Below are positions 24,601 through 52,521 of a DNA stretch of 63,419 nt, in pieces (positions within the stretch are counted from its first letter, which is position 1; each line of letters begins with the position of its first letter). The translations under genes were made by a program, and so were the position numbers. Source of the stretch: an uncultured bacterium. Its GTDB lineage: Bacteria; Bacillota; Clostridia; Christensenellales; UBA1242. Where the stretch lies: positions 1 to 63,419 of the forward strand of contig CASLXJ010000001.1 of assembly GCA_949398915.1 (NCBI GenBank). The letters run 5' to 3'. The notes beneath the pieces were generated by a model that had not been told where the DNA came from, ran no database searches, and saw nothing but the letters and a program-made list of their open reading frames with translations.

Positions 24601-24863
24601 GTTCCTGTTCTTAAAGTATAATTTCCATTAAGTTTTGGCACTCCAACATTGCCATACGGATATCCCATATCTTCATAGGTATAGGTGTTGGTCAATGGGT
24701 TGTTATACCAATAAATCTTTGGTATAACTTTTATAGTGCCTGTCACGCCCTCAGTTTTTTGTTCTGGCTGTTTGAATGTCGTTGTAAGCAAAATTCCAGA
24801 AAGCAAAACTGTCAGAATTACGATAAAAGAGAAAATAAACTTGTTGATTTTCAAATTTTTCAT
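21678..24863 (-). CDS. Large surface protein, paralog 1 of 4 (N-terminal signal/anchor, 4-5 Flg_new Listeria-Bacteroides repeats, GLUG-like repeats, conserved C-terminal tail)
   Basis: Strong RBS AAGGAGGG. Repeated units of the form YTVTFNANGGS...PTRTGYNFTGWYT...LYAHW. The C-terminal third has GxxVGGIxG GLUG-like repeats. The tail NQPLPKGFSWIS is shared with the other paralogs. Confidence 0.8.
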   Translation of the reverse strand: MKNLKINKFIFSFIVILTVLLSGILLTTTFKQPEQKTEGVTGTIKVIPKIYWYNNPLTNTYTYEDMGYPYGNVGVPKLNGNYTLRTGTYQNSRGIPISSIPNNNGWDYFIGYLTLTGFDTSGTTAIDAIVNERGQKPITYADDQEVYLQYVWNGSSKRTLDIDVNLYSKGFGVSNYILSDSPFSYENSSQNHNITFNQYLYDEFSLSVDPTIFSSKTTTKYLAVVCAPKRFYAEYSLYSGEYFGDGTTGVKSINIRFGDYYSVPSGTPRKNHYTFEKWNAYRYGPNSKSLDISNSVLFTDPDMLSISARWIANTETIKLMRNDNTQDFATTTIEWGYSIPNVSTPTRAGYSFLGYFDSASGGTQYIDANGKGLKSHDLENATLYAHWLPNQYTVTFNANGGSIPSSSNWTGSGSSAQKSLNFDSNYGTLPNPTRTGYNFTGWYTASSGGSKVESNTILKNANNHTLYAHWDGKPYTVVYNPGYSGASAASHTGFKYGSSTALRTISALGFSRNGYDFKGWATSKNGGVVYSNGQSVSNLSSNGGEVNLFAVWQAKTYTLTANANGGSIPTTSGWSGSGASATKTITFDSTYGTLPTPTRTGHTFAGWYTAASSGEAVSATTGVTTTGNRTIYAHWTVNSYTLTADANMTGATFTSVPSDWNGSGTTRTRSVIYNTSYGTLPTPAKEGYIFLGWYTAASGGSSVYSTTTMGAGNTRIYAHWERTWAADATGIDLSGLGGSGTVGDPYIIDSELDIAFLALQTSKNVTFDGKYFKQTTNIDLEGKTWLPIGNATTAFQGSYDGNGYLITNITTIANGQLNYSNVGLFGYTRNATIKNVNIISGTIQGYDYVGSIVGNLNNGSVENCRSGATVTGHNYVGMIGYGVSTSILSSYNYGSVSGNDYVGGILGCNGDNGTRLENCYMKGSVTATASDANCGGILGQTTTSGITLQSCGFIGSVTGGSNTGLLTGNLNGGSVIDCFANSTTNYAFTKGSGTIKSSLYIQNKDSNNSVKKYVTNNSETNPFANWTIAVNNQPLPKGFSWISSNGGNLTMEKLEKLDYTA

Positions 24864-30907: not shown

Positions 30908-31213
30908 ATGAAAATAACAGTAACTATCAGAAACTTAAGCCAGCAGGTATATCTTACTCTTAATGATGAAAAAAATGAAGCAATGCTTGGCGGCAAACCA
31001 ATTCAATTGGAAGTTGCACCATTTGCAAGCCGACTTCTCACCATTGTTTCTTCATGGGAAGAGAGAATGGTAAATGACTTTATCATTGACGGCGAAGAAT
31101 ATTCTGTAAAAATTGAAAAAGATGGAAAAACCTATCTTTATGAAGGCAGAAACAAGTTTCCAAGAAACTATCGTGATTTCATCAATCTTCTCAGAAGTGC
31201 AAATATATGCTAA
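30908..31213 (+). CDS. Hypothetical small protein, first gene of a 3-gene operon
   Basis: RBS AAGGAG. The stop overlaps the start of the next gene (ATATGCTAA), implying translational coupling. Confidence 0.5.
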   Translation: MKITVTIRNLSQQVYLTLNDEKNEAMLGGKPIQLEVAPFASRLLTIVSSWEERMVNDFIIDGEEYSVKIEKDGKTYLYEGRNKFPRNYRDFINLLRSANIC

Positions 31214-32892
31214 AACACGGTCTCGAAGGCGTCAATCTTAATAATCCGATTGAAAATAAACTGCCTTCGGTAATTGAATATTTTGTTAAAGTTTATGGCG
31301 AAAAGTATCGCGAGCGTATCACCACCCGCTTAAATGACACCATATTCGTTTTTGTTGACCAGTATTTTACAAACAGAATAAAAGATATTGAAAACCACTT
31401 TGAAGAATTAAGATTTAATCTGCTAAGCAAATTCAAACAAAAATCAATTATCAACTTTTCAAGCCTTACAAAACCACAACTTGACCAGTTGGATGTGTGG
31501 CAAAAAAATATTGACGAAACAGAAATCGAAAATGTAAAAAACTTTTTAAAGCATTTTGTAGCTGTCAACTCATATCAACTAAAAACAGCCCTGCAAAAAG
31601 GCTATGAAAAAGACCTTTGCAATTTCTTAGCTGACATAAATGATTTCTATCATAAAGAAGTCAAAAAAGATTTGGAATATCTTGAAAATGAACAAGAAAA
31701 ATTTCTTGCTCTTCCGCTTGATGATTTTTCAGTCAACCGCATAGAAAATTCATATAATTTGGACTTGACACGAATGCTTTACAAAAACATTGTAAGTCAA
31801 TTTGCTATTCCAGACAACGAGGAAAATGAGAGTTTACTCTTGCCTTTTCTTCCAGCTTACCACAAAGCAATTAAGACCAATCAAGAATACTTTTCTTCTC
31901 AAGAGCGAGACGCGCTTTTAGATTTTTTCAAAGTCGTGGATAAATTATCAAATGACGATTTCTCAGATAATAAAAGCTTCTATGATTATCTTCAAGACAA
32001 AAATTTTAAAAACAAACTCTTTGGTCGTGAATTTAAAAGAAATCTTAATGCTTTGAAATCAGAAAAAGATATAAAACTCACCCCTATTTTATGTGACCGC
32101 ATTAAAAACACCCAACCACTCTATGACGAAGAGTTTGTTTTTCAAGATGATATATTACAAAGAATAAGCGAATTTAGCAATACTCCATCTATTGGTCAGC
32201 GTTCAGCAGCCTTTATATTTCCAGGACTGTCTTACAGCGATCTTGAAAAAACAAGAAACATCTGCGTTTGCGGAAGTTTCTTCAATCTTTACGACTCAAA
32301 TATCATTCATGAAATGAACCATATAATAGAGTCAGACTATTCACTTAAAAATGCCATCTTTTATCAAAAGACTGGTTTTGACATAAACAACACCCCTCTT
32401 GGAAGAGGTGCGGCAAGCTCAAACAATTGCCTATTATTAAACGAAACCATAAACGACTATCTTTCTTTGAAAGTGCTTAAACTTATGGAAAATGATGATT
32501 TTAAAATAGGTCATAAGACTTTAATAAACTCAACCTACTCAAAAGCATTTCCCCTTATTGAAGACTTTATTGAAGAAAACTTAAATGAAATAATTGACAG
32601 CCGCATGAGCGAAAATCCAATGTCTTTCGCTGAAAAAATTGGTTTAGACAACTTTAATGCTCTTTCAAAAGCAGTTGATACTTTCTTAAATCTCGCAAAG
32701 GTTTATTCTATAGAAAGTGCCTCTCAAGAATTGAAAGAAAAAACAGGGCAAACTGAAATTGATATGTTTTCAATTGAAACAAACCCAAATTTCAGCAATG
32801 CAACAAATCTCTTAATAAACTGCTTTCAAAATGTAAAAGAAATTAAAGAAAGAATTTCATCAACACAAATAGACACAGAAAATGAAATTTAA
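31207..32892 (+). CDS. Uncharacterised HExxH (gluzincin-like) protein, paralog A
   Basis: IHEMNHIIESD followed ~50 aa later by LLNETINDY, resembling the thermolysin-type NExxSD third-ligand motif. No signal peptide. N-terminus is nearly identical in pattern to paralog B. Confidence 0.6.
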   Translation: MLKHGLEGVNLNNPIENKLPSVIEYFVKVYGEKYRERITTRLNDTIFVFVDQYFTNRIKDIENHFEELRFNLLSKFKQKSIINFSSLTKPQLDQLDVWQKNIDETEIENVKNFLKHFVAVNSYQLKTALQKGYEKDLCNFLADINDFYHKEVKKDLEYLENEQEKFLALPLDDFSVNRIENSYNLDLTRMLYKNIVSQFAIPDNEENESLLLPFLPAYHKAIKTNQEYFSSQERDALLDFFKVVDKLSNDDFSDNKSFYDYLQDKNFKNKLFGREFKRNLNALKSEKDIKLTPILCDRIKNTQPLYDEEFVFQDDILQRISEFSNTPSIGQRSAAFIFPGLSYSDLEKTRNICVCGSFFNLYDSNIIHEMNHIIESDYSLKNAIFYQKTGFDINNTPLGRGAASSNNCLLLNETINDYLSLKVLKLMENDDFKIGHKTLINSTYSKAFPLIEDFIEENLNEIIDSRMSENPMSFAEKIGLDNFNALSKAVDTFLNLAKVYSIESASQELKEKTGQTEIDMFSIETNPNFSNATNLLINCFQNVKEIKERISSTQIDTENEI

Positions 32893-32925
32893 AAACACAA
32901 AAAACAATCTATAAAAGGACAAAAT

Positions 32926-34767
32926 ATGATTAAGCACGGAATAGAAAACATAAATTTAAATAATCCACTTGAAAATAAGCTGCCAAAGGTTATTGATTAT
33001 TTTGTCAAATTCTATGGAGAAAAGTATAGAACAAGAATAACCGAGCGTCTCAACAATGCGACCTATATTTTCACAGAGACTGTTGGCTCACTTAATTCTT
33101 ATTACTATTTAAAAGATTATTTTGAAAACAAAAATGAAGAAGTTGCAGCGCAATTCTTTAAGAACATCGGCTGCGAACATCAACCTTTTCTTTACATGTT
33201 TTTGGACTGGAAAAATTGGCAGAACAGTGTAAAAAACTATGGCTCTACATCTATCCCTTTAAATAAAAATTTAAGCACTCTTCTTGCCAGCTATCTTAAA
33301 CTTGATGACTGCTCGCAACAAGATAAAGATGAGCTTATTCACCTATTTTTACTTGATAAGAAAAACAATATAAAAATACAAAAATACCTTGCAAAAAGTG
33401 AGGCTTTATTCAACAAAATATATAAGCCTCAATTTGAATATTTGCAGAAAGAATATGCTCGAATTTCCCCACCTTTCAAAGAAAATTTTGATAAATTATC
33501 AAAAATTCGTCAAAATTTCAGTGAAAAACGCTTAATTTTGTTAAAAAATCATATTTCTCAAACTTTTGATATAGATTTTAATAAACCCGAGCTTAATGAA
33601 ATCGCTGAAATATTAGAGCTGTTTTTAAGTAAAGGCAGATTTGAATTTAATAAAGAAAAATCTCTCAAACTTTTTCAGTTTGTAACAAAACAAAATGATA
33701 ATAAAACAAGTTTTGACGAGTTTATCAATGACAAAAATTTATTGAGCAAGATAAGAAATGAAGCAGTAATCAAAGAATTTTCAACACTTGTAAAAGAAGA
33801 AAATGAGGAAATTCTTTCAAACAATGCTGAATATATTCATTTAAAAGAAATTTTGGAAAATGATGACATTTATCAAGGTGACATATTAGCAACTCTTGGT
33901 GACTATATCACAAAGGCTGGCAATGTAATGGCTTATATTGACCACACTTTCAAATATTCATCACCTTACCAGCCTTATGCAATCTGCGTGCTTCCTGCCA
34001 CATTTTGCCTCGACAATGAAACTCTAGTGCATGAGCTTAATCATATTATTGAATCTGACATAATCTACAATACCCAATTTGAAATGACTATGCGATGCGG
34101 CATTTGCCCAAGCGTGTTGAATAAAAATTTCAACACCACTTATGGCAGTCGCGAATTTAACATGTTGAATGAAGTAATCAACGATTACATTGCAATAAAA
34201 ATCAACAAATTGATGGCTAAGGACGGATTTACAATTGGCCTGCATAAACATATAAAATCAGTTTTTGCATACGCGTTTCCACTTTTAAGCGAGTTTATCG
34301 AAGATAATTGGGATGCTTTGATAGAATGCCGAATGGGTGACGCTGCGCTGGAAGAACGCTTTGACATGAACGATATTGCTTCACTTGCAAGAGTCACTAC
34401 AGAATTTCTTTTAATCAACGACAAAGACAATATTTTAAAAGAGATTGAAAGCAAAACATTTAAAGGCGTCAATATATTTGACATCCTTGACAACGATGAG
34501 CTTGAGCTTAGCAACGATGCAAAGAATTATGTAAATTGCTATCGACAAGTCAGCTACTCAACCAATAAGTTGAAACTGACAAAGATTAAATTAAGTAAGA
34601 CAAACCCTACTTCAAACAAAACAAATCCTGTTTCAAGCAAAACCTCTTCAACAATTAAAGCCGAAATTCCACAAGGCCTAAATAACGCAAAACGCAAAAC
34701 AGTATCTCAAGTGCTTGAAGAACGCAGGCGAGAGCGTGAAAACGCGTCTGATTATTCAAAATATTAA
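32926..34767 (+). CDS. Uncharacterised HExxH (gluzincin-like) protein, paralog B
   Basis: VHELNHIIESD plus MLNEVINDY. N-terminus MIKHGIENINLNNPLENKLPKVIDYFVKFYGEKYRTRITERLN parallels paralog A. Ser/Thr/Lys-rich C-terminal tail. Confidence 0.6.
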   Translation: MIKHGIENINLNNPLENKLPKVIDYFVKFYGEKYRTRITERLNNATYIFTETVGSLNSYYYLKDYFENKNEEVAAQFFKNIGCEHQPFLYMFLDWKNWQNSVKNYGSTSIPLNKNLSTLLASYLKLDDCSQQDKDELIHLFLLDKKNNIKIQKYLAKSEALFNKIYKPQFEYLQKEYARISPPFKENFDKLSKIRQNFSEKRLILLKNHISQTFDIDFNKPELNEIAEILELFLSKGRFEFNKEKSLKLFQFVTKQNDNKTSFDEFINDKNLLSKIRNEAVIKEFSTLVKEENEEILSNNAEYIHLKEILENDDIYQGDILATLGDYITKAGNVMAYIDHTFKYSSPYQPYAICVLPATFCLDNETLVHELNHIIESDIIYNTQFEMTMRCGICPSVLNKNFNTTYGSREFNMLNEVINDYIAIKINKLMAKDGFTIGLHKHIKSVFAYAFPLLSEFIEDNWDALIECRMGDAALEERFDMNDIASLARVTTEFLLINDKDNILKEIESKTFKGVNIFDILDNDELELSNDAKNYVNCYRQVSYSTNKLKLTKIKLSKTNPTSNKTNPVSSKTSSTIKAEIPQGLNNAKRKTVSQVLEERRRERENASDYSKY

Positions 34768-37145: not shown

Positions 37146-37440
37146 CTTGCGCTCCTTTTAAAAATTTATCAATAAGCCAAAGCTCGCATTTGCTGTAATA
37201 TATATGCAAAGCAAAGTGCAAATTGACATAGTGCCTATAGTATTTTACAATAAAATTGTGAAAAAAACAACAATTTTTTTGAGATTATTTCAAAAAAGGC
37301 AAAATTTTAAAAACATTTGAAAGTTTTTTTGCCAAAAGAGTTGCTTTTTAAAACAAAAAATGCTATATTAAAGAAAGTCAGCATCACGCAAACCTTGCTG
37401 TTGGTGCAAATTATAATAATATTATATGGAGGTTAAACCA

Positions 37441-37717: not shown

Positions 37718-40579
37718 CTATATTGAAGTGTATCCAAGCTGGGTAAGCTTGCTTGCTGTCAAACTGCTATCACTGACAACACCCATCCAAGCCAACTGCT
37801 TTGGTAATGGCTGGTTTTGCAAGGTAATAACCCATCCAGTGTAATTGGTTACTTTAAAGCGTTTAACGCCGTTTATCTCAAACACACAATTGGTGAAACT
37901 TGCATTTGTAAGACCATAATTATTCAGTGACTGCGTTGTGGTAAATGTCGCTCTCGCATAACAATTTGACACATTGCCCGCATAACCTATTGCGTAACCA
38001 CCGCTTGTAGTCAAGATTGAGCCTTCAAAATAACAATCTGTTATACTTCCAGAAATGTTGCCGACAATGCCTCCAACATCACTCACTCCTTCAATAGCGC
38101 CCTTAGAAATACAACTTGTAATAATAGCTGAGCCATTTCCTAGAATGCCTCCTACTTTGCTGTTTCCAGATACATCACCATAGTTGTAACATTTGCTTAT
38201 TGTTGAGGTTGAATAACCAACAATACCGCCAACAGCCCCACTTGTAGAGCTTCCATAAATATTACAAAAGCTTATGCAATCAGTAATAGAGCCAAGCAGA
38301 GAATACCCCACAATGCCTCCTATATTTGTATTTCCTGAGACTCTTCCGCTTGAAAGCCTGATATTTTTTAATGTTGCACTAGAAGCCGCCCCAAACAGCC
38401 CTTGATAGCTTTCATTGCCCTGAATTATAAGGTTTGATATGGTGTATCCTCCGCCGTCATAGCTGCCCTTAAATGGATATGTACTGCTGCCTATAGGCGT
38501 CCAAACCTTTCCAGACAGGTCAATCGACGCCGTCTGCTTAAAACTGCCTGTAAGCGAAGCTGTCTCGCTCTGCTTTGCCATCCATGCCAAATTTGCCGCA
38601 CTGGAAATTTGATATACTCCATTCACCTGCGATGGTGCGGTGACACTTGCTGAGCTGCCCTCTTTCCAAACAGCATACAAGGTGACCGGCCCAGTGCAAG
38701 TTATCGACGCACCATCTTGATAAATTACCACCCCACTTGACGAGGTTGCCCACCCCATAAACACATATCCACTTCGCTTAAAGGCGTTTCGGGTCAATGA
38801 AACTGTAGAGCCATGCGAAACTAATTGATTTGACATAGTCCCACTTCCGCCATTCGAATTGAAAGTAATGACATAATTTTTAATTGTCCATTGTGCATAA
38901 ATAATATGGTCGGAAGTCTTATTCATTGCTGTGCCTGTCGAAATCTGCGTGCCACCACTCGCCGCATCATACCACCCTTTCAAGTTGTACCCCGTCCGCG
39001 AAACGGACGGCAATGTGGAGTATGCGGAGCCATAGCTTACCTTCTTTATTGCCACACTTCCACTGCCGCTCCAACCGCTCGTCGACGATATGGTACCGCC
39101 GTTTGCACTGGCGGAAATATTATAACTGTTTGCCTGCCATACCGCATTGAAATCAACCGTTGTAGTGCTAAACTCAGGCACTTCTGGAATGGTCAATGTT
39201 CCAGATGGTGAAAGATAATAATAGTAAGTCTTGCCATTTTTTACATAAGACCAACCGCTCAGCGTATACCCAGTTTTAGTTGGTTTTGGAAAACCTGAAT
39301 ACTCAGCCCCCTGCTTAATTCCACTTTGTGACGAAGCACTTTGCCCATTGTTTGGGTTGAAACGAAATGTATACTCAGGCGCCGCCGCTGAAGCGGCAGA
39401 GTTTAGATTGAGGTGAAGCGCAGGCCGCACAGCACGGGAATTGTTTACAAAGTTAAAACCAGGAGAGGCGCCGGAGGGGTAGAGATAGTAAGCATAGTTT
39501 GCAGTGAGGGAGTAGCCCGAACGGAGCCAAGAATAAGCTGACGCTGAGCCAGAGGTAGAGCCTACATTACCTAATGAAGATGTAGTAGTGCCATCATAAT
39601 TCTTTCGCTGGTCTGTTGAAGTCTGCCATATTCCATCGTAGGTTGTATCGTAGCCTGTTTCTGTTCTACTTGGAAGCCATAATTTGTCTCCTGCCCATTT
39701 ATAATAATTTGATTTATCTGGCAATGTTTGAGCTCCATAAGATGTATCCCAATTATAACTACTTAATTTTGCCGCATCTTCATTTGGATAGTTATATGAT
39801 GTATTTGCTCCAAGTTTACTGCGTGTGTCTTGATTTCTTTGCCACGAAACTTTGTTTGGCTCTACTATATAATTGCTTAAACTACCCATTGTAAAGTTTG
39901 CAAATATACTATTTGAACTTTTTGGCACTGTTGTATATCCTGTTGTTGAGGTGCCATATGCTCCTCCATTATTTAGGGTCACTGCATGTATATAGCTTGC
40001 TCCATACATTGCTGATGGATTATATACATTATATGCAGAGTTATACCAGTTTGCCGACCAGTCTGAGTATAACCCACCATTTAAGAAACCATAATATTCC
40101 CCCTCTGTTGCACTTCTTCCACTGAATGCACTCTGAGTGCTGTTTGAAAGCCATAAGGTCAAAATAGAATTTCCGTTTGTATCTTTTGAGAGATAAACCA
40201 CCTGCCAATCAAGGCCTCCTAAGGTGACTATTATATCTTGTGATGAGGTTTTATTATATGTTTTTGACCTTATTGTTGCTGCTGAAGTGCCTGGTTGGCC
40301 ATCTGAGGTTGAGCTTGCTGCCATGCTGTTTATTGTAGACATATTATATACACTGCTTGCCCCACCTGAAACATATTGGATAAGTTTATTCAAATTGTTT
40401 TCATCAAAATTATTTTTACCAGCACTCCAAATATCTCCAACTTTCACATAACTTGAGGTATCTGTATTTGTTATCGCTTCGGAAGTCTTAAAAGTGGTGC
40501 TTAAAAACACTCCGACCACCAAAATTATAGCCGAAAAGACTGTCGCAAAGACAAATGAAATTCCTCTTTTAGTTTTCAT
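37718..40579 (-). CDS. DGR target: large surface protein, paralog 2 of 4 (signal/anchor, N-terminal WLRS...VRPAL lectin-like variable domain, Flg_new repeats, GLUG-like repeats)
   Basis: RBS GGAGAAGG. Contains the VR at codons ~349-391 (SWLRSGYSLTANYAYYLYPSGASPGFNFVNNSRAVRPALHL). Three Flg_new-type units follow, then a GLUG-like GGIVG repeat region. Confidence 0.85.
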   Translation of the reverse strand: MKTKRGISFVFATVFSAIILVVGVFLSTTFKTSEAITNTDTSSYVKVGDIWSAGKNNFDENNLNKLIQYVSGGASSVYNMSTINSMAASSTSDGQPGTSAATIRSKTYNKTSSQDIIVTLGGLDWQVVYLSKDTNGNSILTLWLSNSTQSAFSGRSATEGEYYGFLNGGLYSDWSANWYNSAYNVYNPSAMYGASYIHAVTLNNGGAYGTSTTGYTTVPKSSNSIFANFTMGSLSNYIVEPNKVSWQRNQDTRSKLGANTSYNYPNEDAAKLSSYNWDTSYGAQTLPDKSNYYKWAGDKLWLPSRTETGYDTTYDGIWQTSTDQRKNYDGTTTSSLGNVGSTSGSASAYSWLRSGYSLTANYAYYLYPSGASPGFNFVNNSRAVRPALHLNLNSAASAAAPEYTFRFNPNNGQSASSQSGIKQGAEYSGFPKPTKTGYTLSGWSYVKNGKTYYYYLSPSGTLTIPEVPEFSTTTVDFNAVWQANSYNISASANGGTISSTSGWSGSGSVAIKKVSYGSAYSTLPSVSRTGYNLKGWYDAASGGTQISTGTAMNKTSDHIIYAQWTIKNYVITFNSNGGSGTMSNQLVSHGSTVSLTRNAFKRSGYVFMGWATSSSGVVIYQDGASITCTGPVTLYAVWKEGSSASVTAPSQVNGVYQISSAANLAWMAKQSETASLTGSFKQTASIDLSGKVWTPIGSSTYPFKGSYDGGGYTISNLIIQGNESYQGLFGAASSATLKNIRLSSGRVSGNTNIGGIVGYSLLGSITDCISFCNIYGSSTSGAVGGIVGYSTSTISKCYNYGDVSGNSKVGGILGNGSAIITSCISKGAIEGVSDVGGIVGNISGSITDCYFEGSILTTSGGYAIGYAGNVSNCYARATFTTTQSLNNYGLTNASFTNCVFEINGVKRFKVTNYTGWVITLQNQPLPKQLAWMGVVSDSSLTASKLTQLGYTSI
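39384..39397 (-). promoter_or_regulatory. GC-rich hairpin just 3' of the VR (candidate DGR target-recognition cruciform)
   Basis: gccgc-ttca-gcggc on the coding strand, 12 nt after the VR end. It follows the GC-rich IMH-like gtgcggcctgcgc. Confidence 0.55.
39409..39533 (-). repeat. DGR variable repeat (VR)
   Basis: Its reverse complement aligns gap-free over 125 nt with TR 40808-40932. There are 17 mismatches, all at positions where the TR has adenine. Confidence 0.92.
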
Positions 40580-40623
40580 AAACCTTCTCCATATTCACAA
40601 ATTCGCATATATTCAATTGTAAA

Positions 40624-40652
40624 AAATATTTTTACAAAATGCAAGCATTTAC
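40624..40652 (-). promoter_or_regulatory. Sigma-70-type promoter of the DGR target gene (TTGCAT-N17-TACAAT)
   Basis: Minus strand: TTGCAT (40647-40652), a 17-nt spacer, then TACAAT (40624-40629). About 45 nt upstream of the ATG at 40579. Confidence 0.55.
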
Positions 40653-40744
40653 GGCATTCCGTAAAAATTTTTTACAAAAAAAATGAAAATTTTCACCCTA
40701 TCAAAGACAATTTTTAAATATTTGTTTCTTTTTAAAAAGAAAAA

Positions 40745-40753
40745 TGTTATAAT
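40745..40753 (+). promoter_or_regulatory. Extended -10 promoter (TGtTATAAT) for the TR RNA
   Basis: A plus-strand TGTTATAAT lies 55 nt upstream of the TR. The orientation matches the strand on which the TR adenines lie. Confidence 0.55.
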
Positions 40754-40807
40754 CAAATTGACTTAAGTTTTTAAGTCAGGGCAAGGGCTTTTATTAGGCT
40801 GGTGGCT

Positions 40808-40932
40808 TTCTTGGCTCCGTTCGGGCAACAACAACAATGCAAACAATGCATACAATCTCAACCCCTCCGGCGCCTCTAATGGTAATAACAATGTAAACAA
40901 TTCCCGTGCTGTGCGGCCTGCGCTTCACCACA
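40808..40932 (+). repeat. DGR template repeat (TR)
   Basis: Adenine-rich AAC/AAT codon run (aacaacaacaatgcaaacaatgcatacaat...). It lies outside any gene and is invariant at non-A positions relative to the VR. Confidence 0.92.
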
Positions 40933-41170
40933 CTTGGATAAAACCAAGTTTTCCAGAATTTGACGAGAGATTTTCCGCCAAACAGTAAGATTTGAGGTGA
41001 AGGGGTCTTTGTCCCACCTAGCATATAATTGATATGAGGGTAAACAAGGTTTAATCTTCTTTCAACGGCATGACAAAACATTGTCACTTTTGAAAGATGA
41101 GCTTTCTTCTCAGTTACAAATTTTGAAAGCGGTTAAACCATCATTCAGTCGGCAAAAGACGCTGACTGAG

Positions 41171-41205
41171 AAAAAGGAGAGAAATGCTCTCCTTTTTTTA
41201 TTTTT
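41171..41205. terminator. Bidirectional terminator shared by the TR RNA (+) and the RT-avd operon (-)
   Basis: Stem ggagag (41176-41181) / ctctcc (41187-41192), with T7 downstream on + and A5 upstream (T5 on the minus strand). Confidence 0.65.
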
Positions 41206-41335
41206 ATCAACCATGCCAGAATAATAGGTTATAATCAAAATAATATGTCAAAAAAGAACAGCAAGCCTAGGTCTTACCGATTTTCATTTAACCAATGAAA
41301 GCAAGCGTGCTTTTATAATGAAAGAAAGCATGTTT

Positions 41336-41797
41336 TTATTTTGAGGACTTAATCCAGCCTGCAAGCAGTTTTTGCACCTCGCAAATTTGTTTTGCAATGA
41401 CCTCGCACTGATGATTGTTTATTGCCTGCATAGTTTTGGCTGTATCTGCGTAAAAATCAAGCATATGAAGATATACATTTGCTCTGGTCTGATAAGCGAG
41501 GCGTTTTTCACCACGCTCGAAATTGGCTTGATAGAGATAGTCAATTATTTGACTTGAGTAGTTTTGAAGCCTTGCGATAATGCTCCAGCGATATTTCTTC
41601 GGCGACTTTTCTGTGATGACGAAGATATATTCGCAAAGTTTTTTTGCGTGAGTAAACACAGCCATTTCTTTTTGTTTGCTTTTTGGAGAAGAAAGCTCAT
41701 CAATGATAAACTCCTTTCTTGCCACCTGTTTTTGAAGGGCTTTAAGCTCTTTTTCTGCCGAGTTTTCACCCAAAAAATTCATCTGATTGTTTTCCAT
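41336..41797 (-). CDS. avd: DGR accessory variability determinant (Avd-like four-helix-bundle protein)
   Basis: 153 aa, all-helical. Pattern KKLCEYIFVITEKSPKKYRWSIIARLQN...LAGWIKS is typical of the Avd / 23S-rRNA-IVS four-helix-bundle family. Begins 19 nt downstream of the RT stop. Confidence 0.75.
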   Translation of the reverse strand: MENNQMNFLGENSAEKELKALQKQVARKEFIIDELSSPKSKQKEMAVFTHAKKLCEYIFVITEKSPKKYRWSIIARLQNYSSQIIDYLYQANFERGEKRLAYQTRANVYLHMLDFYADTAKTMQAINNHQCEVIAKQICEVQKLLAGWIKSSK

Positions 41798-41816
41798 AAA
41801 TTATTCCTTTTAATTT

Positions 41817-42908
41817 TTATTTAATCATTTTCAAGATGGGACTGCTCACCTTCATTTCAAGTTTGAAGCAATCACCATGCATTAGATGACCATGATAAGC
41901 CTGCAATGACTGCATTACTTTTGCCTTATCAATAAAGCCCTCGCTGTATGCAATTTGAATAAGTCTTGCCCGCCTTTTAAATCTCTTAGCTGTCTTATTT
42001 GAAACTTTTTTAATCAGCTTTCCGGTCTTTGAAATTTGATAACGAAAACCAAGATAAGTAAGCCCATTTTTAAGCGGGAAAATTTGCGTGCGTGAGTTAA
42101 GTTTCAAGTCAAGCTTGTCAAGTTCTGCTTTTATCACATCAAGCAGAGTAAGCAAAAACTTTTTATCTTTATGTACAATTACAAAATCATCCATATATCT
42201 TGAATAGATTTTAACGCGAAATTTCTCCTTGATCATTCGGTCAAGTTTGTCAAGATAAAACATTCCAAATATCTGACTTGTTTGGTTGCCAATAGGCACC
42301 CCTCTGCCCGTTTTGTCACCCTCAAATTCAATTCTTTCAATTTCATATCGCTGCAAAAACTCTGGGCGTGTATGAAAGCTTTGGATAATTTTGACCACCA
42401 TGCTTTTAAGCCTTTCATCTTTAATCTCGTTTGCAATGCAATTTATCAAGACCCTGTGCGAAAGACTGGGGAAATATTTGAGAATATCACATTTTAAAAC
42501 ATAACCATTTTGCCCATTATCATGAACAAACTTTTTAAGCTTTTCTTCAAAACGCCTCAACGCATAATGCATTCCTTTTCCCTTTTGACAGACGCAATTG
42601 TCGAGGATTGCTTTTCTCGTAAAATAGGGGGCAAGCAAATCATCACAAATGACATGCTGCACCACTCTTTGACTGTAATAAAGCGTTTGTATTTCTCGTT
42701 TTTTCGGCTCAAATATGACAAAAGTGTTGTATCTGTCAATTTTAAATTTACCATCTTTGACCTTGCTAAAAATGTCATATAACTTAGACAGATTTCCAAT
42801 TTCAAAACGCACAAGAGACTTTTTATCACGCTTTGAAATGCGTCCTCTTTTATGTGCATTATAAATGGTTGAAAAAGAAAAAATATCCTCAAATTTGTCT
42901 TCAATCAT
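41817..42908 (-). CDS. DGR reverse transcriptase
   Basis: RT motifs include the DGR-diagnostic PIGNQTSQ and the catalytic YMDD (SRYMDDFVIV). About 363 aa, with no maturase/endonuclease or retron-type extensions. Confidence 0.9.
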   Translation of the reverse strand: MIEDKFEDIFSFSTIYNAHKRGRISKRDKKSLVRFEIGNLSKLYDIFSKVKDGKFKIDRYNTFVIFEPKKREIQTLYYSQRVVQHVICDDLLAPYFTRKAILDNCVCQKGKGMHYALRRFEEKLKKFVHDNGQNGYVLKCDILKYFPSLSHRVLINCIANEIKDERLKSMVVKIIQSFHTRPEFLQRYEIERIEFEGDKTGRGVPIGNQTSQIFGMFYLDKLDRMIKEKFRVKIYSRYMDDFVIVHKDKKFLLTLLDVIKAELDKLDLKLNSRTQIFPLKNGLTYLGFRYQISKTGKLIKKVSNKTAKRFKRRARLIQIAYSEGFIDKAKVMQSLQAYHGHLMHGDCFKLEMKVSSPILKMIK

Positions 42909-43243: not shown

Positions 43244-46201
43244 TCAGCTTACCTTCCAATATCCAAGCTCTTGCAATATTTCGAGGCTTAGCTGGTCACC
43301 AACTCCACCAATCCAAGCAAGCTCTTTTGGAAGAGTAAGACCGTCTTTTGTAATTATCCAATTTGAAAAATCATCTCCATAGCAAAACTTATTTCTGCCA
43401 ATTTCAAAAACACTATTTTTCAGCTTGCCTACGCCTATACTGCCGTATTCAAGCGCGTTGACATTTCCAAATAAAGTCATTCTGATATAACAATTTTCAA
43501 ATTCTGGATTTGAAGAGCCATAATAGAGATAACCAGCAACCACGCCAAAATTAGACATTACAGACTTAAGCGTTCCATTAAAATAATAATTATTCAAATG
43601 CACTCTTGTCATGCAACTGCCAATAAGCCCACCTACCTCAGAATTACCTGAAATACTTGACTTTACAAGAATGTTTGAAGCGAAGTAGTCGCCAGTGCAT
43701 CTTCCAACAATGCCGCCAACCGAGCTTTTTCCAGTCACATTACCATAATTATAACAAAGATTGGTTGTTATCGTGCCTGAATATCCGACAAGGCCACCTA
43801 CATTATTAGTACCTTCTACATCAATATGGTTTACGCAATTTGTAAAAATTGTCGCATTTGCATCGCCTACAATGCTGCCTACATTATTTCCTCCAACTAT
43901 CTTACCAGAAACAATTCTTATATTTGAAAGCTTTGAGCCGCTTGTCTGTCCAAATAGTCCTTGGTATGAATTTGAGCCTGTAATATATAGGCTTGAAATA
44001 GAATAGCCCTGCCCGTCATAATTGCCCTTAAATGGATATTTTTCATTGCCAATTGGCGTCCAAGGCATTCCAAACAAGTCAATTGAAGCGGTCTGAATAA
44101 AGTCTCCGCTTAAACTTTGAGTTTCACACTGCTTTGCCATCCACCCCAAATGCGAAGGAGAAGAAATTTCATATTTGCCATTATTCAAAACTGGAGCTTC
44201 AACATCACTTGTGAAACTATACTCCCAAATAGCATAAAGGGTTAAATCTTCATAAAAAGCAGTATAATGCAAATCGTTGTATTCAACTTCACCATCTGCC
44301 GTCGTAGACCAACCGGCAAAAACATAACCACTTCGTGTGAATTTGTTTGGATTTAAATAAACATTCATTCCATGTTTTACCGATTGCGTACTCATTGTGC
44401 CCACGCCTTCATTCGCATTAAAAGTGATTGTGTAAGACTTATCATCCCACTGCGCATAAATCATGTGATTTTCAGCGCTTATAAGCACCTTTGTCGAACT
44501 GCTTGATCCATTCGAGACTGTTGTTGATATTTGATTGCCGCCAATTGCAGCGTCAAACCAGCCTTTCAAGGTGTATCCCTCTCTCTTCACATCAGGAAGC
44601 TCACCATAAACACTTCCATAACTATAATTTCTCATAGCCGCAAGTCCAACGCCCGTCCAGTTTCTAGTGCTTGAAATTGTTCCACCATTTGCAATTGCTG
44701 CAACAGTATAGCTTTTTGCCGCCCACTGCGCAGTAAAGGTCACAGTAGCGCCATTTGTCCCATAGTTTTCAACAGGATTTAATGTCAAAGTCCCTGTCGG
44801 AGAGGTGTTGTATATTTTGTTGTTATAACTGCATTTCCAGCCAATTAAATCATAGCCTGTCTTTGTTGGAACATTAAAAGTAAAACTTCCACCTGCTTTG
44901 ACACCACTATAACTTGACGAGGTTGCTCCACTATAGGTGCCGCCGTTATAATTTGTAACAAAGGTGTATTCGTCTGGAATTGACTTTGCAATCTCAGATA
45001 AGTTGAGATGAAACGCTGGACGGACTGCATTAAGCACATAAACTGAACCATTTACCATACCGCTGCCCATAGGCTGAAGAGCATTCGCTTGATAATTATA
45101 ACTGCTTGCATCACCAGACCTAAGCCAAGAATAAGTACTTAACGTGTCTGACACAGTCCCTACATTTCCACTTATAGAAGTATTCGACATTTGTCCATCA
45201 TAATTCTTAAGCTGATTTTCACTTAATTTCCACATTCCAATATAAGATTTTGTATATCCAACTTCTGACAAACTTGGCAGCCAGATGTAGTCATTCGCCC
45301 ATGTTTGATTTAATGCATTGTTTGCATAATTTGTGTAGTTTCCACTGCTACTCCCAAAGGTATACGACTCGCCCATATAACTTCCATTATTTGGAATATT
45401 TGGCGACCAATTTTCATTTGGCGCAGAAAATTGGTCGCCAAATATTGTTTTTCTATTTTGTCCATATTCCTGCCATTTGACATCTATTGGTTTTACGATA
45501 TACTTTGTAAGACTTCCTGAAACACTTGGCATAGTGAATTTTGCAAATGCGCTGTTTGAATTTTGTGATGCCGAAACAGCTGAAGTTATGCTGGTGGAAT
45601 ACTGCCCACCATTATTAAGGGTGACTGCCCTAATATAACTTGCACCATACATATTTGCAGGATATTTTGCAGTCAAATCATTCTTATACCAATTTGCCGA
45701 CCATGAAGAATAAAATCCACTGTTGTAGAAGCCAAAATAAGAGCCCTCAGCTGTGCTTCTTCCACTGAAAGCACTTTGAGTAGAATTTGCCAGCCAAAGT
45801 GTAAGAATTGAATTTCCATTGTTATCTTTTGAAAGATAAACCACCTGCCATTCAAGGTCACCAAACTTGACAACAACATCTTGAGAGGAACTTTTTCCAT
45901 AAGTCTTTGCCCTTATTTGCGAAGCATTTGTTTTATTTGAAGCCATTGTATCTATTGTGCTCATACTTTTTATGCTGGCATTGCCATTTCCAGAGATATA
46001 TCTCAAAAGACTGTTGACATTATTTGCTGAAAATCCATTTCCATCCCATATTTCATTGACTTTCACACAGCTTGAGCTGTCAGTATAAGAAAGAGCTTCA
46101 GTATTTGTAATTTTTCCGCTGTAAAACAACCCCATTAAAAGAGAACAGACAGCAAACAGAAAACACGAACAAAACACTGAAAGCTTTCTGAAAATCTCCA
46201 T
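43244..46201 (-). CDS. Large surface protein, paralog 3 of 4 (same architecture as the DGR target but not TR-matched)
   Basis: RBS AGGAGG. N-terminal domain is homologous to the target (SWLRSGDASSYNYQANALQPMGSGMVNGSVYVLNAVRPAFHL), followed by Flg_new and GLUG-like repeats. Confidence 0.85.
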   Translation of the reverse strand: MEIFRKLSVFCSCFLFAVCSLLMGLFYSGKITNTEALSYTDSSSCVKVNEIWDGNGFSANNVNSLLRYISGNGNASIKSMSTIDTMASNKTNASQIRAKTYGKSSSQDVVVKFGDLEWQVVYLSKDNNGNSILTLWLANSTQSAFSGRSTAEGSYFGFYNSGFYSSWSANWYKNDLTAKYPANMYGASYIRAVTLNNGGQYSTSITSAVSASQNSNSAFAKFTMPSVSGSLTKYIVKPIDVKWQEYGQNRKTIFGDQFSAPNENWSPNIPNNGSYMGESYTFGSSSGNYTNYANNALNQTWANDYIWLPSLSEVGYTKSYIGMWKLSENQLKNYDGQMSNTSISGNVGTVSDTLSTYSWLRSGDASSYNYQANALQPMGSGMVNGSVYVLNAVRPAFHLNLSEIAKSIPDEYTFVTNYNGGTYSGATSSSYSGVKAGGSFTFNVPTKTGYDLIGWKCSYNNKIYNTSPTGTLTLNPVENYGTNGATVTFTAQWAAKSYTVAAIANGGTISSTRNWTGVGLAAMRNYSYGSVYGELPDVKREGYTLKGWFDAAIGGNQISTTVSNGSSSSTKVLISAENHMIYAQWDDKSYTITFNANEGVGTMSTQSVKHGMNVYLNPNKFTRSGYVFAGWSTTADGEVEYNDLHYTAFYEDLTLYAIWEYSFTSDVEAPVLNNGKYEISSPSHLGWMAKQCETQSLSGDFIQTASIDLFGMPWTPIGNEKYPFKGNYDGQGYSISSLYITGSNSYQGLFGQTSGSKLSNIRIVSGKIVGGNNVGSIVGDANATIFTNCVNHIDVEGTNNVGGLVGYSGTITTNLCYNYGNVTGKSSVGGIVGRCTGDYFASNILVKSSISGNSEVGGLIGSCMTRVHLNNYYFNGTLKSVMSNFGVVAGYLYYGSSNPEFENCYIRMTLFGNVNALEYGSIGVGKLKNSVFEIGRNKFCYGDDFSNWIITKDGLTLPKELAWIGGVGDQLSLEILQELGYWKVS

Positions 46202-46411
46202 ATTTTCCTCCTAAATTAAAAAATATAATTCACCCAATATCTCTATTATGTCATAATTTGTCGAATTTACAAAATAAAATATAAATATATTTTATCTTAT
46301 CATTCTTTAAATTTCATACGATAAAGCGTAAACAAAATTTGCTTCAAATAAAAATCAAAATTATTTAAAATTTGCAAACTCAATTTTTTCGACTTTTATC
46401 TGTTCAATCCT

Positions 46412-49633: not shown

Positions 49634-52339
49634 TTAAATTTTCAGTCCATCACCAGCACCGCCAATCCATGCAAGCCCATTTGGAAGTGGTTGACCTAAG
49701 GCAAGCTCTGACCAACTTGAAAAGTCGTCGCCTATATAGGTTATGTTGCCATTGTCACACACGCAACTTTCTGCTGTTGTCCCACTCGCATAAAGAGAGG
49801 TGTTTGAAGTTGTGATTGCCAAACAATTTTTCAGCTTTCCATCAATCATAACTCCAGCAATAAGCCCCTGCCCAAGAGATGAAGAAGAAAAAGAACCTTT
49901 AAAACCACAAGATACCACCTCTGTTCCACTCACTTGCGAACTGCCAATCACACCACCACTGTTCGCGCCAATAACCTTGCACCTTGCAAGACTGTTTGAT
50001 ATTGTGATTTTTAAACTATAATTAAAACCAACTATTCCGCCAGCACTGCTATTTGCAGTAATATTACCATAATTTAGACAAGAAATAATGTCACAACCAC
50101 TGCTCGCGCCAATCATTCCACAATTACTGTTGCCATAAACAACAACTCTGCTTCGACAACCTTCAATGCTTCCAGTGTTTGTTCCACCAGCTGATATCGC
50201 TTCAATGCAACCTGCAATCGCTCCCACATTATGATTTCCATACACTGTGCCAGAAAAGAGGTTTATATTTTTAAGAGTTGCGCCAATAGTATATCCAAAC
50301 AGCCCAACATTTGAGTATAGATAATTGCCAGACGAGCTTCCCACTCTCGCACTTGAAGTTGAAAGATTTTTAATCAAAAAACCATTTCCGTCATAATTGC
50401 CTTTAAAGGCTTTTGATCTGCTTTCACCAATCGGCTTCCACAACTTTCCACCTAAATCTATGTCACCAGTCTGTCTAAAATACACACCTGAAAAACTTGT
50501 TCCATTATCCACCGCTTTTGAAATGTATGCAAGGTCTGTGGCGGAAGAAACTAGATATGGGTTGCTTTTAGACCCCTTATTTGCCTCCTGCACCGCACTT
50601 AATGACAACGAAGCTGAATTATTCCAAGTCTCTTCCCAAACAGCATATAAGTTTAATGCACTTATCAAATTTGAAACAGCTTGATTTTCATAATAGGTTG
50701 TCCCTGTTCCATTTGAATTTGTACTCCAATATTTGAAAATGTAGTTTTCCTTTTTGAACGCATTGCTTGTAAGCTGTTTAGAGCCGCTATCATAAGTTAC
50801 ACTCATGCTGCTCATGCTTCCACTGCCGCCATTTGCATAAAAGTTTACATTAAAAGTCTTAGGTGACCAATGCGCATAAATTGTATGATTTCCTGCAGTT
50901 TTTACAAGTGTGCCACTTTCAACCTTACTTCCACCATTTGCCGCAGTAAACCACCCATCAAAATTGTATCCCGTTTTTGTTGGCACCGGAAGCGTGCCAT
51001 AACCCAAATCATAAGTTACCGTTTTATATGCACTAGCTCCACTTCCACTCCAACCACTCGTTGAAGGAATACTTCCTCTATTGGCATCTGCTGTCACCGT
51101 ATATGTATATGCCTGCCAAACTGCATAAAGATGGACTTCTCCACCAGTTGAGCTTAAATAACTTACACTCTGCCCATCTGTATAAACTACTCCACCACCT
51201 TCACTAGTCGCCCAGCCTTTAAAGTCAAAACCATTTCGACTGTAACCCAAATCGCTTATCGTTCTCAACGCTGTAGAGGTGCCATATTTAAAGCCTGTTT
51301 GAGATGAGGGGCCTGCCCCCGAATAATTTGAGTGATATAATACGTCGTATGACTTGCCTTCCCAGTGCGCGTAAATGGTGTGATTGCTTGTTTTATTCAT
51401 AACAGTTGAGGATGTTATGCTTGAGCCACCACTTGCAGATGTAAACCACCCAGTAAAATTATATCCCGTTCTTGTTGGCGTTGGGAGAGTGCCATAGGTA
51501 GTATAATAAGTAATCGACTTTTGAGCAGATGAGCCACTTCCACTCCAGCCATTTGTCACAGGAATTGAGCCACCATTCGCATTTAAAGTGACAGTATATT
51601 TCATTTTTTCCCAATGCGCATAAAGAATAGTTTCGCTTTCAACTACAGTTGATGTATAAATTTTTGTTCCACCACTGGCTGAGGTATACCAGCCTAAAAA
51701 TTTATATCCCGTTCTTGTCGGTGTCGGCAATGAGCCATAACTGTTATCACGTGTGTAAATTTTTGTGTCATAAATTCCGTTTCCATCATTCTTATCAAAA
51801 TCAACAAAAACATCATTAAATTTCGTGTAAATTAAAGCTAATCCGCAATAGCCCAAGTTTTTTGACTTTATGTAATTTTCTATTACCTCTTGATAACTCG
51901 CCCCTTCTCCACTGCCAGAAAAAGTAGTGTTCATTCCAATAAACCGCCCCTGCCAAATAAAGCCACATCTTTCAATGCGTACAAAATAATCAGATATGCT
52001 GGGCACCTGACTTCCTTTTGAGCCAGTTAGGCTTGTCTTAACACTAAAAGCAAAAATTTGTGAAGCAACTCGACTTGCACTGCCTTCACACACCATAGTT
52101 AAATTGCAATAACTATGAAGCGGATTGCTGGATTCTGGATAAAGCCTTTCTCCATTAAATTTTCCATAATAACAAAGAACATCCCCATCATTCGTAGTTA
52201 TACCAAAATAAAAATTTACCACTTCAGCGTTTGTATTGACTTTTTTAGGCATAACGATAAGCAAACATCCCATTGTCCCCAACAAAAAAATGGCTAGAAT
52301 GATTAAAAAATAATATAATTTGCTTATACTTCTTTTCAT
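49634..52339 (-). CDS. Large surface protein, paralog 4 of 4 (signal/anchor, Flg_new repeats, GLUG-like repeats)
   Basis: The ATG at 52339 with RBS AAGGAG is preferred over the ORF-track TTG at 52363. Long segments are near-identical in pattern to paralog 1 (e.g. GFKYGTSTALRTISDLGYSRNGFDFKGWATS). Confidence 0.8.
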   Translation of the reverse strand: MKRSISKLYYFLIILAIFLLGTMGCLLIVMPKKVNTNAEVVNFYFGITTNDGDVLCYYGKFNGERLYPESSNPLHSYCNLTMVCEGSASRVASQIFAFSVKTSLTGSKGSQVPSISDYFVRIERCGFIWQGRFIGMNTTFSGSGEGASYQEVIENYIKSKNLGYCGLALIYTKFNDVFVDFDKNDGNGIYDTKIYTRDNSYGSLPTPTRTGYKFLGWYTSASGGTKIYTSTVVESETILYAHWEKMKYTVTLNANGGSIPVTNGWSGSGSSAQKSITYYTTYGTLPTPTRTGYNFTGWFTSASGGSSITSSTVMNKTSNHTIYAHWEGKSYDVLYHSNYSGAGPSSQTGFKYGTSTALRTISDLGYSRNGFDFKGWATSEGGGVVYTDGQSVSYLSSTGGEVHLYAVWQAYTYTVTADANRGSIPSTSGWSGSGASAYKTVTYDLGYGTLPVPTKTGYNFDGWFTAANGGSKVESGTLVKTAGNHTIYAHWSPKTFNVNFYANGGSGSMSSMSVTYDSGSKQLTSNAFKKENYIFKYWSTNSNGTGTTYYENQAVSNLISALNLYAVWEETWNNSASLSLSAVQEANKGSKSNPYLVSSATDLAYISKAVDNGTSFSGVYFRQTGDIDLGGKLWKPIGESRSKAFKGNYDGNGFLIKNLSTSSARVGSSSGNYLYSNVGLFGYTIGATLKNINLFSGTVYGNHNVGAIAGCIEAISAGGTNTGSIEGCRSRVVVYGNSNCGMIGASSGCDIISCLNYGNITANSSAGGIVGFNYSLKITISNSLARCKVIGANSGGVIGSSQVSGTEVVSCGFKGSFSSSSLGQGLIAGVMIDGKLKNCLAITTSNTSLYASGTTAESCVCDNGNITYIGDDFSSWSELALGQPLPNGLAWIGGAGDGLKI

Positions 52340-52521
52340 TTTTCTCCTTTTTTTGTTAAACAAAATAAATTTAATTTATGCTTTTATAGGTTATTGCCTT
52401 ATTCACTTTGTCATTTTATTTATGTCATAATCGACACATTTGCTTTTTTTAAGTAACTATCAATTTAATTTATTCGTTTAGAGTTTTTTCTGCCTAATAT
52501 ATAATATCATTTATCAATATT

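Follow-up and report, generated by a model that had tools for sequence, protein, structure and literature searches.

The 63,419-nt stretch of DNA analyzed here, called the window throughout, corresponds to positions 1 to 63,419 of contig CASLXJ010000001.1 (assembly GCA_949398915.1) of an uncultured Clostridia bacterium, and it very probably carries a chromosomal diversity-generating retroelement (DGR) of the Avd type, which diversifies one cell-surface protein by mutagenic retrohoming. Judged from the comparison of sequences, the DGR is complete and evidently active. It consists of a template repeat (TR) whose adenine strand is 40808-40932 on the plus strand, a variable repeat (VR) at 39409-39533 on the minus strand, the target gene containing this VR (37718-40579, minus strand, 953 residues, defined by its open reading frame [ORF] and Pfam), the avd gene coding for the accessory variability determinant (41336-41797, minus strand, 153 residues), and a reverse transcriptase (RT) gene (41817-42908, minus strand, 363 residues). 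Read in the sense of the RT, the layout is a paralog of the target, RT, avd, inverted TR and target.

Pairwise alignment of the TR (plus strand) with the reverse complement of the VR extended over 125 nt without gaps, with 108 matches and 17 mismatches, and the homology ended abruptly on either side. All 17 mismatches were at adenines of the TR and none at C, G or T positions. Considering the composition of the TR (A35, C40, T28, G22), the chance of all 17 mismatches falling on the 35 A positions is 1.1e-11 (hypergeometric). The same pair was recovered independently by a repeat search of the window. The original prediction, made from the letters of the sequence, had described a gap-free 125-nt match with 17 mismatches, all of them at adenines of a TR with about 35 adenines by hand count, and had placed the VR inside the gene at 37718-40579; realignment reproduced the match exactly, tabulation by TR base left no mismatch at a non-adenine position in the window, the computed composition agreed with the hand count, and the VR codes for residues 350-390 of the target. 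With respect to the reading frame, 16 mismatches were at codon positions 1-2 and one at a silent third position (GCA to GCT), the in-frame peptide being SWLRSGNNNNANNAYNLNPSGASNGNNNVNNSRAVRPALHH for the TR and SWLRSGYSLTANYAYYLYPSGASPGFNFVNNSRAVRPALHL for the VR. The mutagenic zone of the TR (40827-40900) contains 32 A and corresponds to the varying part of the VR (39441-39514), while the 3' part of the VR (39409-39440) is invariant, GC-rich and similar to an initiation of mutagenic homing (IMH) site. When every A was taken as N, the TR still had no further match on either strand of the 63 kb, and a second VR was not found there.

The strongest evidence came from the comparison of the window with seven loci that have an identical RT and come from independent samples, making a set of eight assemblies. 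All eight had a 100% identical TR. The seven loci showed 0-1 substitution relative to the window over 7-13 kb outside the VR, whereas inside the 125-nt VR they differed from it at 15-23 positions, and pairwise VR differences among all eight ranged from 10 to 26. Each of the 32 adenines in 40827-40900 (32/32) was changed in at least one assembly, while only 1 of the 90 non-A positions of the TR varied. In total, 136 TR-to-VR changes were A-to-N and two were non-A, the latter being the same T>G in two related VRs. The microheterogeneity that the original prediction had asked for is thus plentiful from one sample to another and restricted to TR-A positions. As for the protein, the target's 90% cluster had 64 members, and the 14 full-length members listed all had distinct VR peptides (14/14); in their alignment 15 residues were hypervariable, all within positions 356-380, and 28 low-frequency polymorphic positions were present elsewhere in the target.

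The adenines at the 3' end of the TR behaved differently. Those at 40927 and 40932 were unchanged in all VRs, and the one at 40930 was T in every VR of the eight assemblies. Because the same T is present in all of them and lies 3' of the mutable zone, 40930 reads as a fixed difference at the TR/VR boundary (IMH versus IMH* type) rather than as a product of mutagenesis. Consequently, the interpretation of the 17 mismatches of the window as mutagenic, proposed in the original prediction, stands for 16 of them and has to be withdrawn for this one. The substitution spectrum comprised 81 A>T, 32 A>G and 23 A>C. When the bRT of Bordetella phage misincorporates opposite A, dATP is its most frequent choice (PMC7826257), and A>T would be the outcome; the A>T excess may also owe something to selection for Tyr codons.

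Some individual differences among these assemblies can be described. The lone non-A change, T>G, is beside an A at window position 40886 (TR index 78) and was present in loci L014 and L016, whose VRs differ from each other at 10 positions only; this suggests one retrohoming event followed by partial re-diversification, or related samples. In L015 the target was called at 938 residues instead of 953, so there is an indel inside the gene; in L010 there is a 19-nt intergenic indel upstream of the paralog, equivalent to about window position 46242; and two single substitutions outside the VR were located at window positions 44095 and 43057. These four were the only non-VR differences among the assemblies compared.

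The RT matched Pfam RVT_1 and has the motifs IGNQTSQ (residues 206-212) and YMDD (residues 238-241), both already pointed out in the original prediction. The sequence [I/V/L]GxxxSQ is the signature motif of DGR RTs, other RTs having QGxxxSP (PMC7826257). Among solved structures, the best match was Bordetella phage bRT (8ub7 series; E 8.7e-30), followed by weaker matches to group II intron RTs (about 6e-8) and retron-type RTs (3e-6), and R71 and I206 of the RT aligned with R74 and I181 of bRT, which promote adenine mutagenesis (PMC7826257). PHROG 1423 (RT) was matched at 1.4e-91. Its identification as a group II intron, retron or defence-associated RT was considered and rejected, since the NCBIfam group II, retron and DRT models were all far under their cut-offs (group_II_RT_mat, 80 vs. 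300 bits; retron St85, 40 vs. 235; Drt3a, 62 vs. 200) and Rfam revealed no group II intron or retron RNA in the window; judged by search scores, the RT is far nearer to bRT than to those of group II introns or retrons. Of nine loci fetched by RT homology, eight had their own A-biased TR/VR pair. The exact RT was not found in the GTDB representative genomes, the nearest being 52-55% identical, while the identical RT protein was indexed in 134 blocks of the assembly collection; the RT sequence recurred unchanged on 47 contigs, as did that of the paralog on 34.

The product of avd has an N-terminal extension of about 44 residues followed by a four-helix-bundle domain (residues about 45-151). Pfam bAvd was matched with 46.5 bits (gathering cut-off, 40) and PHROG 3206 ("Avd protein of DGR") at 4e-17, so the four-helix Avd-like protein recognized from the translation alone keeps that identity above the Pfam cut-off.

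The target has an N-terminal hydrophobic signal/anchor segment, a DUF6273 domain (residues about 35-395), three Flg_new domains, i.e., Listeria-Bacteroides or InlB B-repeat domains (Pfam, 3.2e-32), and a C-terminal region containing GLUG (Pfam Glug, 2e-8). The Pfam DUF6273 match covered residues 298-391 with 30.3 bits (cut-off, 23.5), and the VR is at its C-terminal end, the same place as in published DGR targets of the DUF6273 type (PMC11792537; PMC10743442). The AlphaFold2 model of residues 31-401, based on 58 homologues, had a pLDDT of 92.2 and a pTM of 0.93. In Foldseek its best match was 9qa6, the N-terminal DUF6273 domain of the Thomasclavelia ramosa IgA peptidase (E 5e-3). The sequence of the target matched in the PDB an InlB B-repeat alone (E 0.033). 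DUF6273 has been assigned to the C-type-lectin-like fold (PMC10743442). Taken together, the target would be a membrane-anchored or secreted adhesin-like surface protein, presumably with a role in ligand binding, and is best called tentaclin-like.

The term tentaclin comes from phages, and the possibility that the element belongs to a prophage or another mobile element, the target being a phage receptor-binding protein (a true "tentaclin"), must be weighed. Among phage RTs, that of nd12 comes nearest (38% identity), and the DGR of this phage diversifies a "tentaclin" with DUF6273 at the N-terminus (PMC10743442), and in BFVD (predicted viral structures) the target's N-terminal domain matched DUF6273 phage proteins (E 2e-4 to 1e-2). 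However, no phage genes, tRNAs or Rfam matches were detected in the window, and the DGR is flanked by housekeeping genes on both sides: rpmB, Asp23 and FakA on one, a pyrophosphatase and an UvrD-like helicase on the other, with RF, TsaD, FeoB and FtsZ further out. Moreover, the target has a hydrophobic leader and is one of four Flg_new surface proteins in the window, and the chromosomal context is the same in all assemblies, including a sister lineage with 94% nucleotide identity (L017). The label of identical proteins at NCBI is "MAG: Clostridia bacterium" (MAG, metagenome-assembled genome). A phage-borne or mobile element is thus very unlikely compared with a chromosomal DGR acting on a cellular protein.

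Another possibility is a relic, in which mutagenic retrohoming belongs to the past and the element is now inactive in this lineage. It would be compatible with evidence that consists of consensus assemblies. Nevertheless, RT, avd, TR and RNA elements, all of them intact, are identical in assemblies with 0-1 single-nucleotide polymorphism relative to the window in 7-13 kb, and the VR is different in every assembly. Because the intact DGR parts are so uniform and the VRs all different, diversification of the VR has been more recent than nearly all point mutations of the DNA around it, and we consider a dead element highly improbable.

The surroundings of the VR also resemble those of a functional target site. 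The GC-rich 3' end of the VR reads GTGCGGCCTGCGCTTCACC, after which TR and VR diverge. Ten nt past the end of the TR/VR homology there is a GC-rich inverted repeat, CTGCCGC-TTCA-GCGGCGG (39382-39399, minus strand). Hairpins were found at the same offset in the relatives L001-L007, with compensatory stems such as GCCGCGC/GCGCGGT, GCCGTGC/GCACGGC and GCCGAAC/GTTCGGC, and a hairpin at the equal offset beside the TR was absent. As summarized in PMC5758913, the Bordetella and Legionella DGRs require an inverted repeat downstream of the IMH to home efficiently. By analogy, the hairpin at 39382-39399 corresponds to the hairpin/cruciform that the Bordetella phage DGR has downstream of its IMH.

The adenine strand of the TR (plus) is opposite to the strand of RT, avd and target (minus), a point left unstated in the original prediction, and in this regard that prediction, otherwise supported in its reading of a DGR, had to be adjusted: the TR belongs to a separate unit, convergent to avd-RT. 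This TR RNA unit would extend from about 40760 to 41210, roughly 450 nt. Upstream of it, an extended -10 element, TGTTATAAT (40745-40753, plus strand), is the likely promoter by its sequence, and TGnTAnAAT-like elements are found just upstream of the conserved 5' arm described below in the relatives. The unit is closed by a strong intrinsic terminator (41169-41210, plus strand; 13-bp stem followed by a T run), which faces a terminator-like hairpin after avd (41259-41279, minus strand); this facing pair sets the TR RNA unit apart from the avd-RT operon. The fold of 40758-41212 had a z of -4.0. Rfam at gathering thresholds gave no match in the window, TR RNA region included. In addition, an AT-rich 33-nt motif, 82% similar between its two copies (37340-37372 and 40724-40756, plus strand), is located upstream of rpmB and of the TR unit and terminates in TGnTATAAT/TGCTATATT; it is probably a promoter architecture common to both.

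The relatives L001-L007, whose RTs are 52-55% identical to that of the window, come from mouse-gut MAGs labelled Anaeroplasmataceae, Christensenella or Clostridia. In six of the eight relatives derived from the RT (L001-L006), RT, avd, TR and target are all on one strand, while the sister lineage L017 has the TR-spacer module inverted as in the window. On the adenine strand, the sequence 3' of the TR shows clear homology between the window and the relatives; because this spacer is homologous to that of the one-strand relatives, it is the whole TR-spacer module that is inverted in the lineages of the window and L017. The contig of L017 stops inside the TR, at 8008, probably by an assembly break at the TR/VR repeat; this suggests that short-read assemblies frequently cut DGR loci short. 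TR and RT may lie on different strands, needing separate transcription units (Wu et al. 2018, PMC5758913). Since that survey records the arrangement, the inverted, autonomous TR RNA unit is a known but uncommon architectural variant.

Within the proposed RNA, the TR is enclosed by a long-range duplex between a 5' arm, GGGCAAGGG (40779-40787, plus strand), and a 3' arm, UCUUUGUCCC (41006-41015, plus strand; within the spacer segment 40996-41015), and among the relatives compensatory changes are seen in 5 of its 9 pairs. A stem-loop, ACUUGG-AUAAAA-CCAAGU (40932-40949, plus strand), starts at the last base of the TR. According to per-sequence folds, used since MAFFT put the stems in differing registers, it is kept in the window and in L001-L007, each with a different stem sequence. 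Furthermore, the spacer sequence GUGAAG (40997-41002, plus strand) pairs with CUUCAC at the 3' end of the TR (40923-40928), a candidate template:primer duplex. In L007, CUCCA/UGGAG is found in place of CUUCA/UGAAG, a compensatory change. Considering both duplexes jointly, 7 of 19 pairs had compensatory changes, and none of 500 shuffles reached the observed values; 92.6% of the cells were paired vs. 41-57% with slid partners, a contrast inflated by the fact that the structure was partly derived from the same nine sequences that provide the covariation. The post-TR stem-loop resembles, by its place, the Avd-binding stem-loop of the Bordetella DGR RNA, whose position has been described (bioRxiv 10.1101/2023.10.23.563531). 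If the analogy holds, the complementary DNA (cDNA) would start just 5' of 40923, which would account for the lack of mutagenesis at the adenines of 40927-40932.

These data also bear on whether the template strand has been assigned correctly, since the TR could instead be used from the minus strand as read-through from RT-avd. In the closest relatives, L001-L006, the TR is downstream of avd on the same strand, and the TR region of the window is also downstream of avd on the minus strand. Under that arrangement, though, the variable positions of the template would be U, and we know of no DGR that mutagenizes U. The structure covarying with the relatives is that of the plus strand, the terminator-like hairpin (41279-41259) comes after avd while the plus-strand terminator closes the TR unit, and DGRs with TR and RT on opposite strands are already on record (Wu et al. 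2018, PMC5758913). The probability left for a minus-strand template is very slight. As for the plus-strand unit, it seems somewhat more probable than the contrary that the TR-spacer RNA is an autonomous, self-promoted, self-terminated, trans-acting non-coding gene that can be flipped with respect to RT, avd and target and still function, and that the inverted DGR is the sole fast-evolving site of the window lineage, whose genome is otherwise clonal and occurs in many samples.

Immediately upstream of the RT there is a paralog of the target (43244-46201, minus strand, 985 residues) with the same domain order. Both proteins had 28-74% identity per 50-residue block, and the WLRSG...AVRPAFHLNL framework is kept. 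The VR-equivalent region of the paralog had with the TR a 26-nt match only, with mismatches that were not A-specific, and neither a GC-rich IMH nor a hairpin was found when looked for in this region. Given the weak match, the lack of IMH and hairpin, and its invariance across contigs, the paralog was rejected as a second or former target. A 30-nt inverted match between 40828-40857 and 45307-45336 was also rejected as a VR since it is off-register with the VR-like region of the paralog; it looks like a chance likeness of Asn-rich codons. Hypervariation through gene conversion from this paralog, which has the same domain order and is only 2.7 kb away, or through diversifying selection on point mutations has a practically negligible probability, because neither predicts changes restricted to the A positions of an invariant intergenic copy, silent third positions included, and the paralog region shares with TR/VR just the weak 26-nt match, with different codons.

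The coding sequence of the paralog contains a perfect inverted repeat of 21 nt around a 10-nt loop (45395-45415/45426-45446), which encodes TIFGDQFSAPNENWSPNI and is the only perfect close inverted repeat of at least 16 nt in the window. In L017 one arm has five substitutions and the other arm is unchanged, so that the repeat looks like a template switch that turned a quasi-palindrome into a palindrome in the window lineage and not like a conserved structure. Two more large surface proteins with Flg_new domains are encoded at 21678-24863 and 49634-52363 (both minus strand). The four Flg_new proteins of the window (4/4) have a similar C-terminal motif, PLPxxLAWIG/PLPKGFSWI, which may be a common anchoring or sorting signal. 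Finally, two adjoining ORFs of 561 and 613 residues (31207-34767, plus strand), opposite to most ORFs, had no Pfam match at E below 1e-5.

Several points weigh against the proposed DGR and its RNA, apart from the small set of sequences behind the covariation. Transcription, cDNA synthesis and retrohoming have been read from the comparison of sequences, and the variation was read between samples, from consensus assemblies, and not within one sample. With respect to the promoter of the TR unit, its -35 is weak, and a consensus promoter scan in which a -35 match was required did not list it. The NCBIfam DivGenRetAVD model gave 55.6 bits for Avd, under its equivalog cut-off of 80, and a solved Avd structure (PDB 4dwl, Bbp7) was matched weakly (E 0.38). 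In addition, Foldseek of the VR-domain model against the PDB gave no significant C-type lectin match, those obtained being short and with E above 1 (Lcl C-terminal domain, CD94-NKG2A, langerin and CLEC9A).

In attention to the whole of the evidence, the following mechanism can be proposed for the DGR of the window. An RNA of about 450 nt would be transcribed from the plus strand, from the extended -10 promoter (start about 40760) to the terminator (about 41210), convergently to avd-RT. This RNA would carry the TR inside the long-range duplex, together with the post-TR stem-loop and the spacer pairing to the TR 3' end, and the minus-strand products RT and Avd would bind it in trans. By analogy with the Bordetella phage ribonucleoprotein, cDNA synthesis would start at the TR:spacer duplex near 40922 and go on through the TR, with random nucleotides misincorporated opposite adenines only. 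The cDNA would then replace the VR at 39409-39533, with the GC-rich 3' homology and the hairpin beyond it as guides. As a result, up to about 15 residues, mostly from AAC/AAT codons of the TR, might be re-randomized on the surface of the DUF6273 domain. The GC skew of the plus strand was negative throughout the window (-0.10 to -0.21), and the minus strand carried the majority of the ORFs of at least 180 residues. It is on this basis that the window probably lies on one replichore with the minus strand as the leading one, the target being co-directional with replication. A co-directional orientation has been reported to favour DGR editing in a reconstituted system (PMC12875486).

In comparison with the prototype, the DGR of Bordetella phage BPP-1 (mtd-avd-TR-brt), the element of the window has the same A-specific TR/VR pair, RT motifs and Avd partner, the same GC-rich IMH-like VR 3' end followed by an inverted repeat, and a TR-enclosing duplex, a post-TR stem-loop and a TR-3':spacer duplex in equal relative positions. 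They differ in that BPP-1 is phage-borne and the window element is chromosomal; in the gene order, which is target-avd-TR-RT in BPP-1 and RT-avd-(TR inverted)-target, with a separate convergent TR RNA, in the window; in the site of the VR, which is the C-terminus of a tail-fibre protein in the former and a DUF6273 domain near the N-terminus of a 953-residue multidomain protein in the latter; and in the RTs themselves, whose identity is low.

DGRs of this type, i.e., with the VR in DUF6273, Avd-type and from gut Firmicutes, have already been described. In gut phages nd4 and nd12 (PMC10743442) and Faecalibacterium prophages (PMC11792537), the VR is also at the C-terminal end of DUF6273, and the targets also have an N-terminal DUF6273 followed by a chain of small beta-rich domains. 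However, the downstream domains are Ig/Fn3 in tentaclins and Flg_new/InlB B-repeats plus GLUG in the window target; tentaclins are phage-borne whereas this protein is cellular, with a signal/anchor leader; and nd4 and nd12 often have two targets whereas the window has one. The DGRs of L001-L007 share homologous RT, Avd and TR-spacer RNA and the same post-VR hairpin. Their targets are large surface proteins (about 1,900 residues when encoded by an intact ORF) that have the VR close to the N-terminus. L001-L006 are arranged on one strand as RT-avd-TR-target, unlike the window and L017. The window exemplifies the different-strand variants of Wu et al. 2018 (PMC5758913) and adds population-level evidence of activity and a conserved RNA on the template strand.

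The concept of DGRs is unchanged by these results, their value being that of a well-characterized case and a possible scaffold for strain tracking or engineering. It is a clean natural case, in which near-identical genomes from independent samples differ almost only at 32 template adenines. The inverted, separately transcribed TR RNA proposed here is compatible with activity and supports the trans action already inferred from surveys. The RNA elements known from cryo-electron microscopy of the Bordetella system would extend, with covariation support, to a distant clade of Firmicutes, and a cellular multidomain adhesin-like protein joins the "tentaclin-like" DUF6273 targets known mainly from gut phages. 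If the reading of an autonomous TR RNA is true, each host-associated population of this bacterium would have its own variant of the surface protein, and the locus would provide a natural system for retrohoming rates and for the independence of the orientation of the TR with respect to that of the target.

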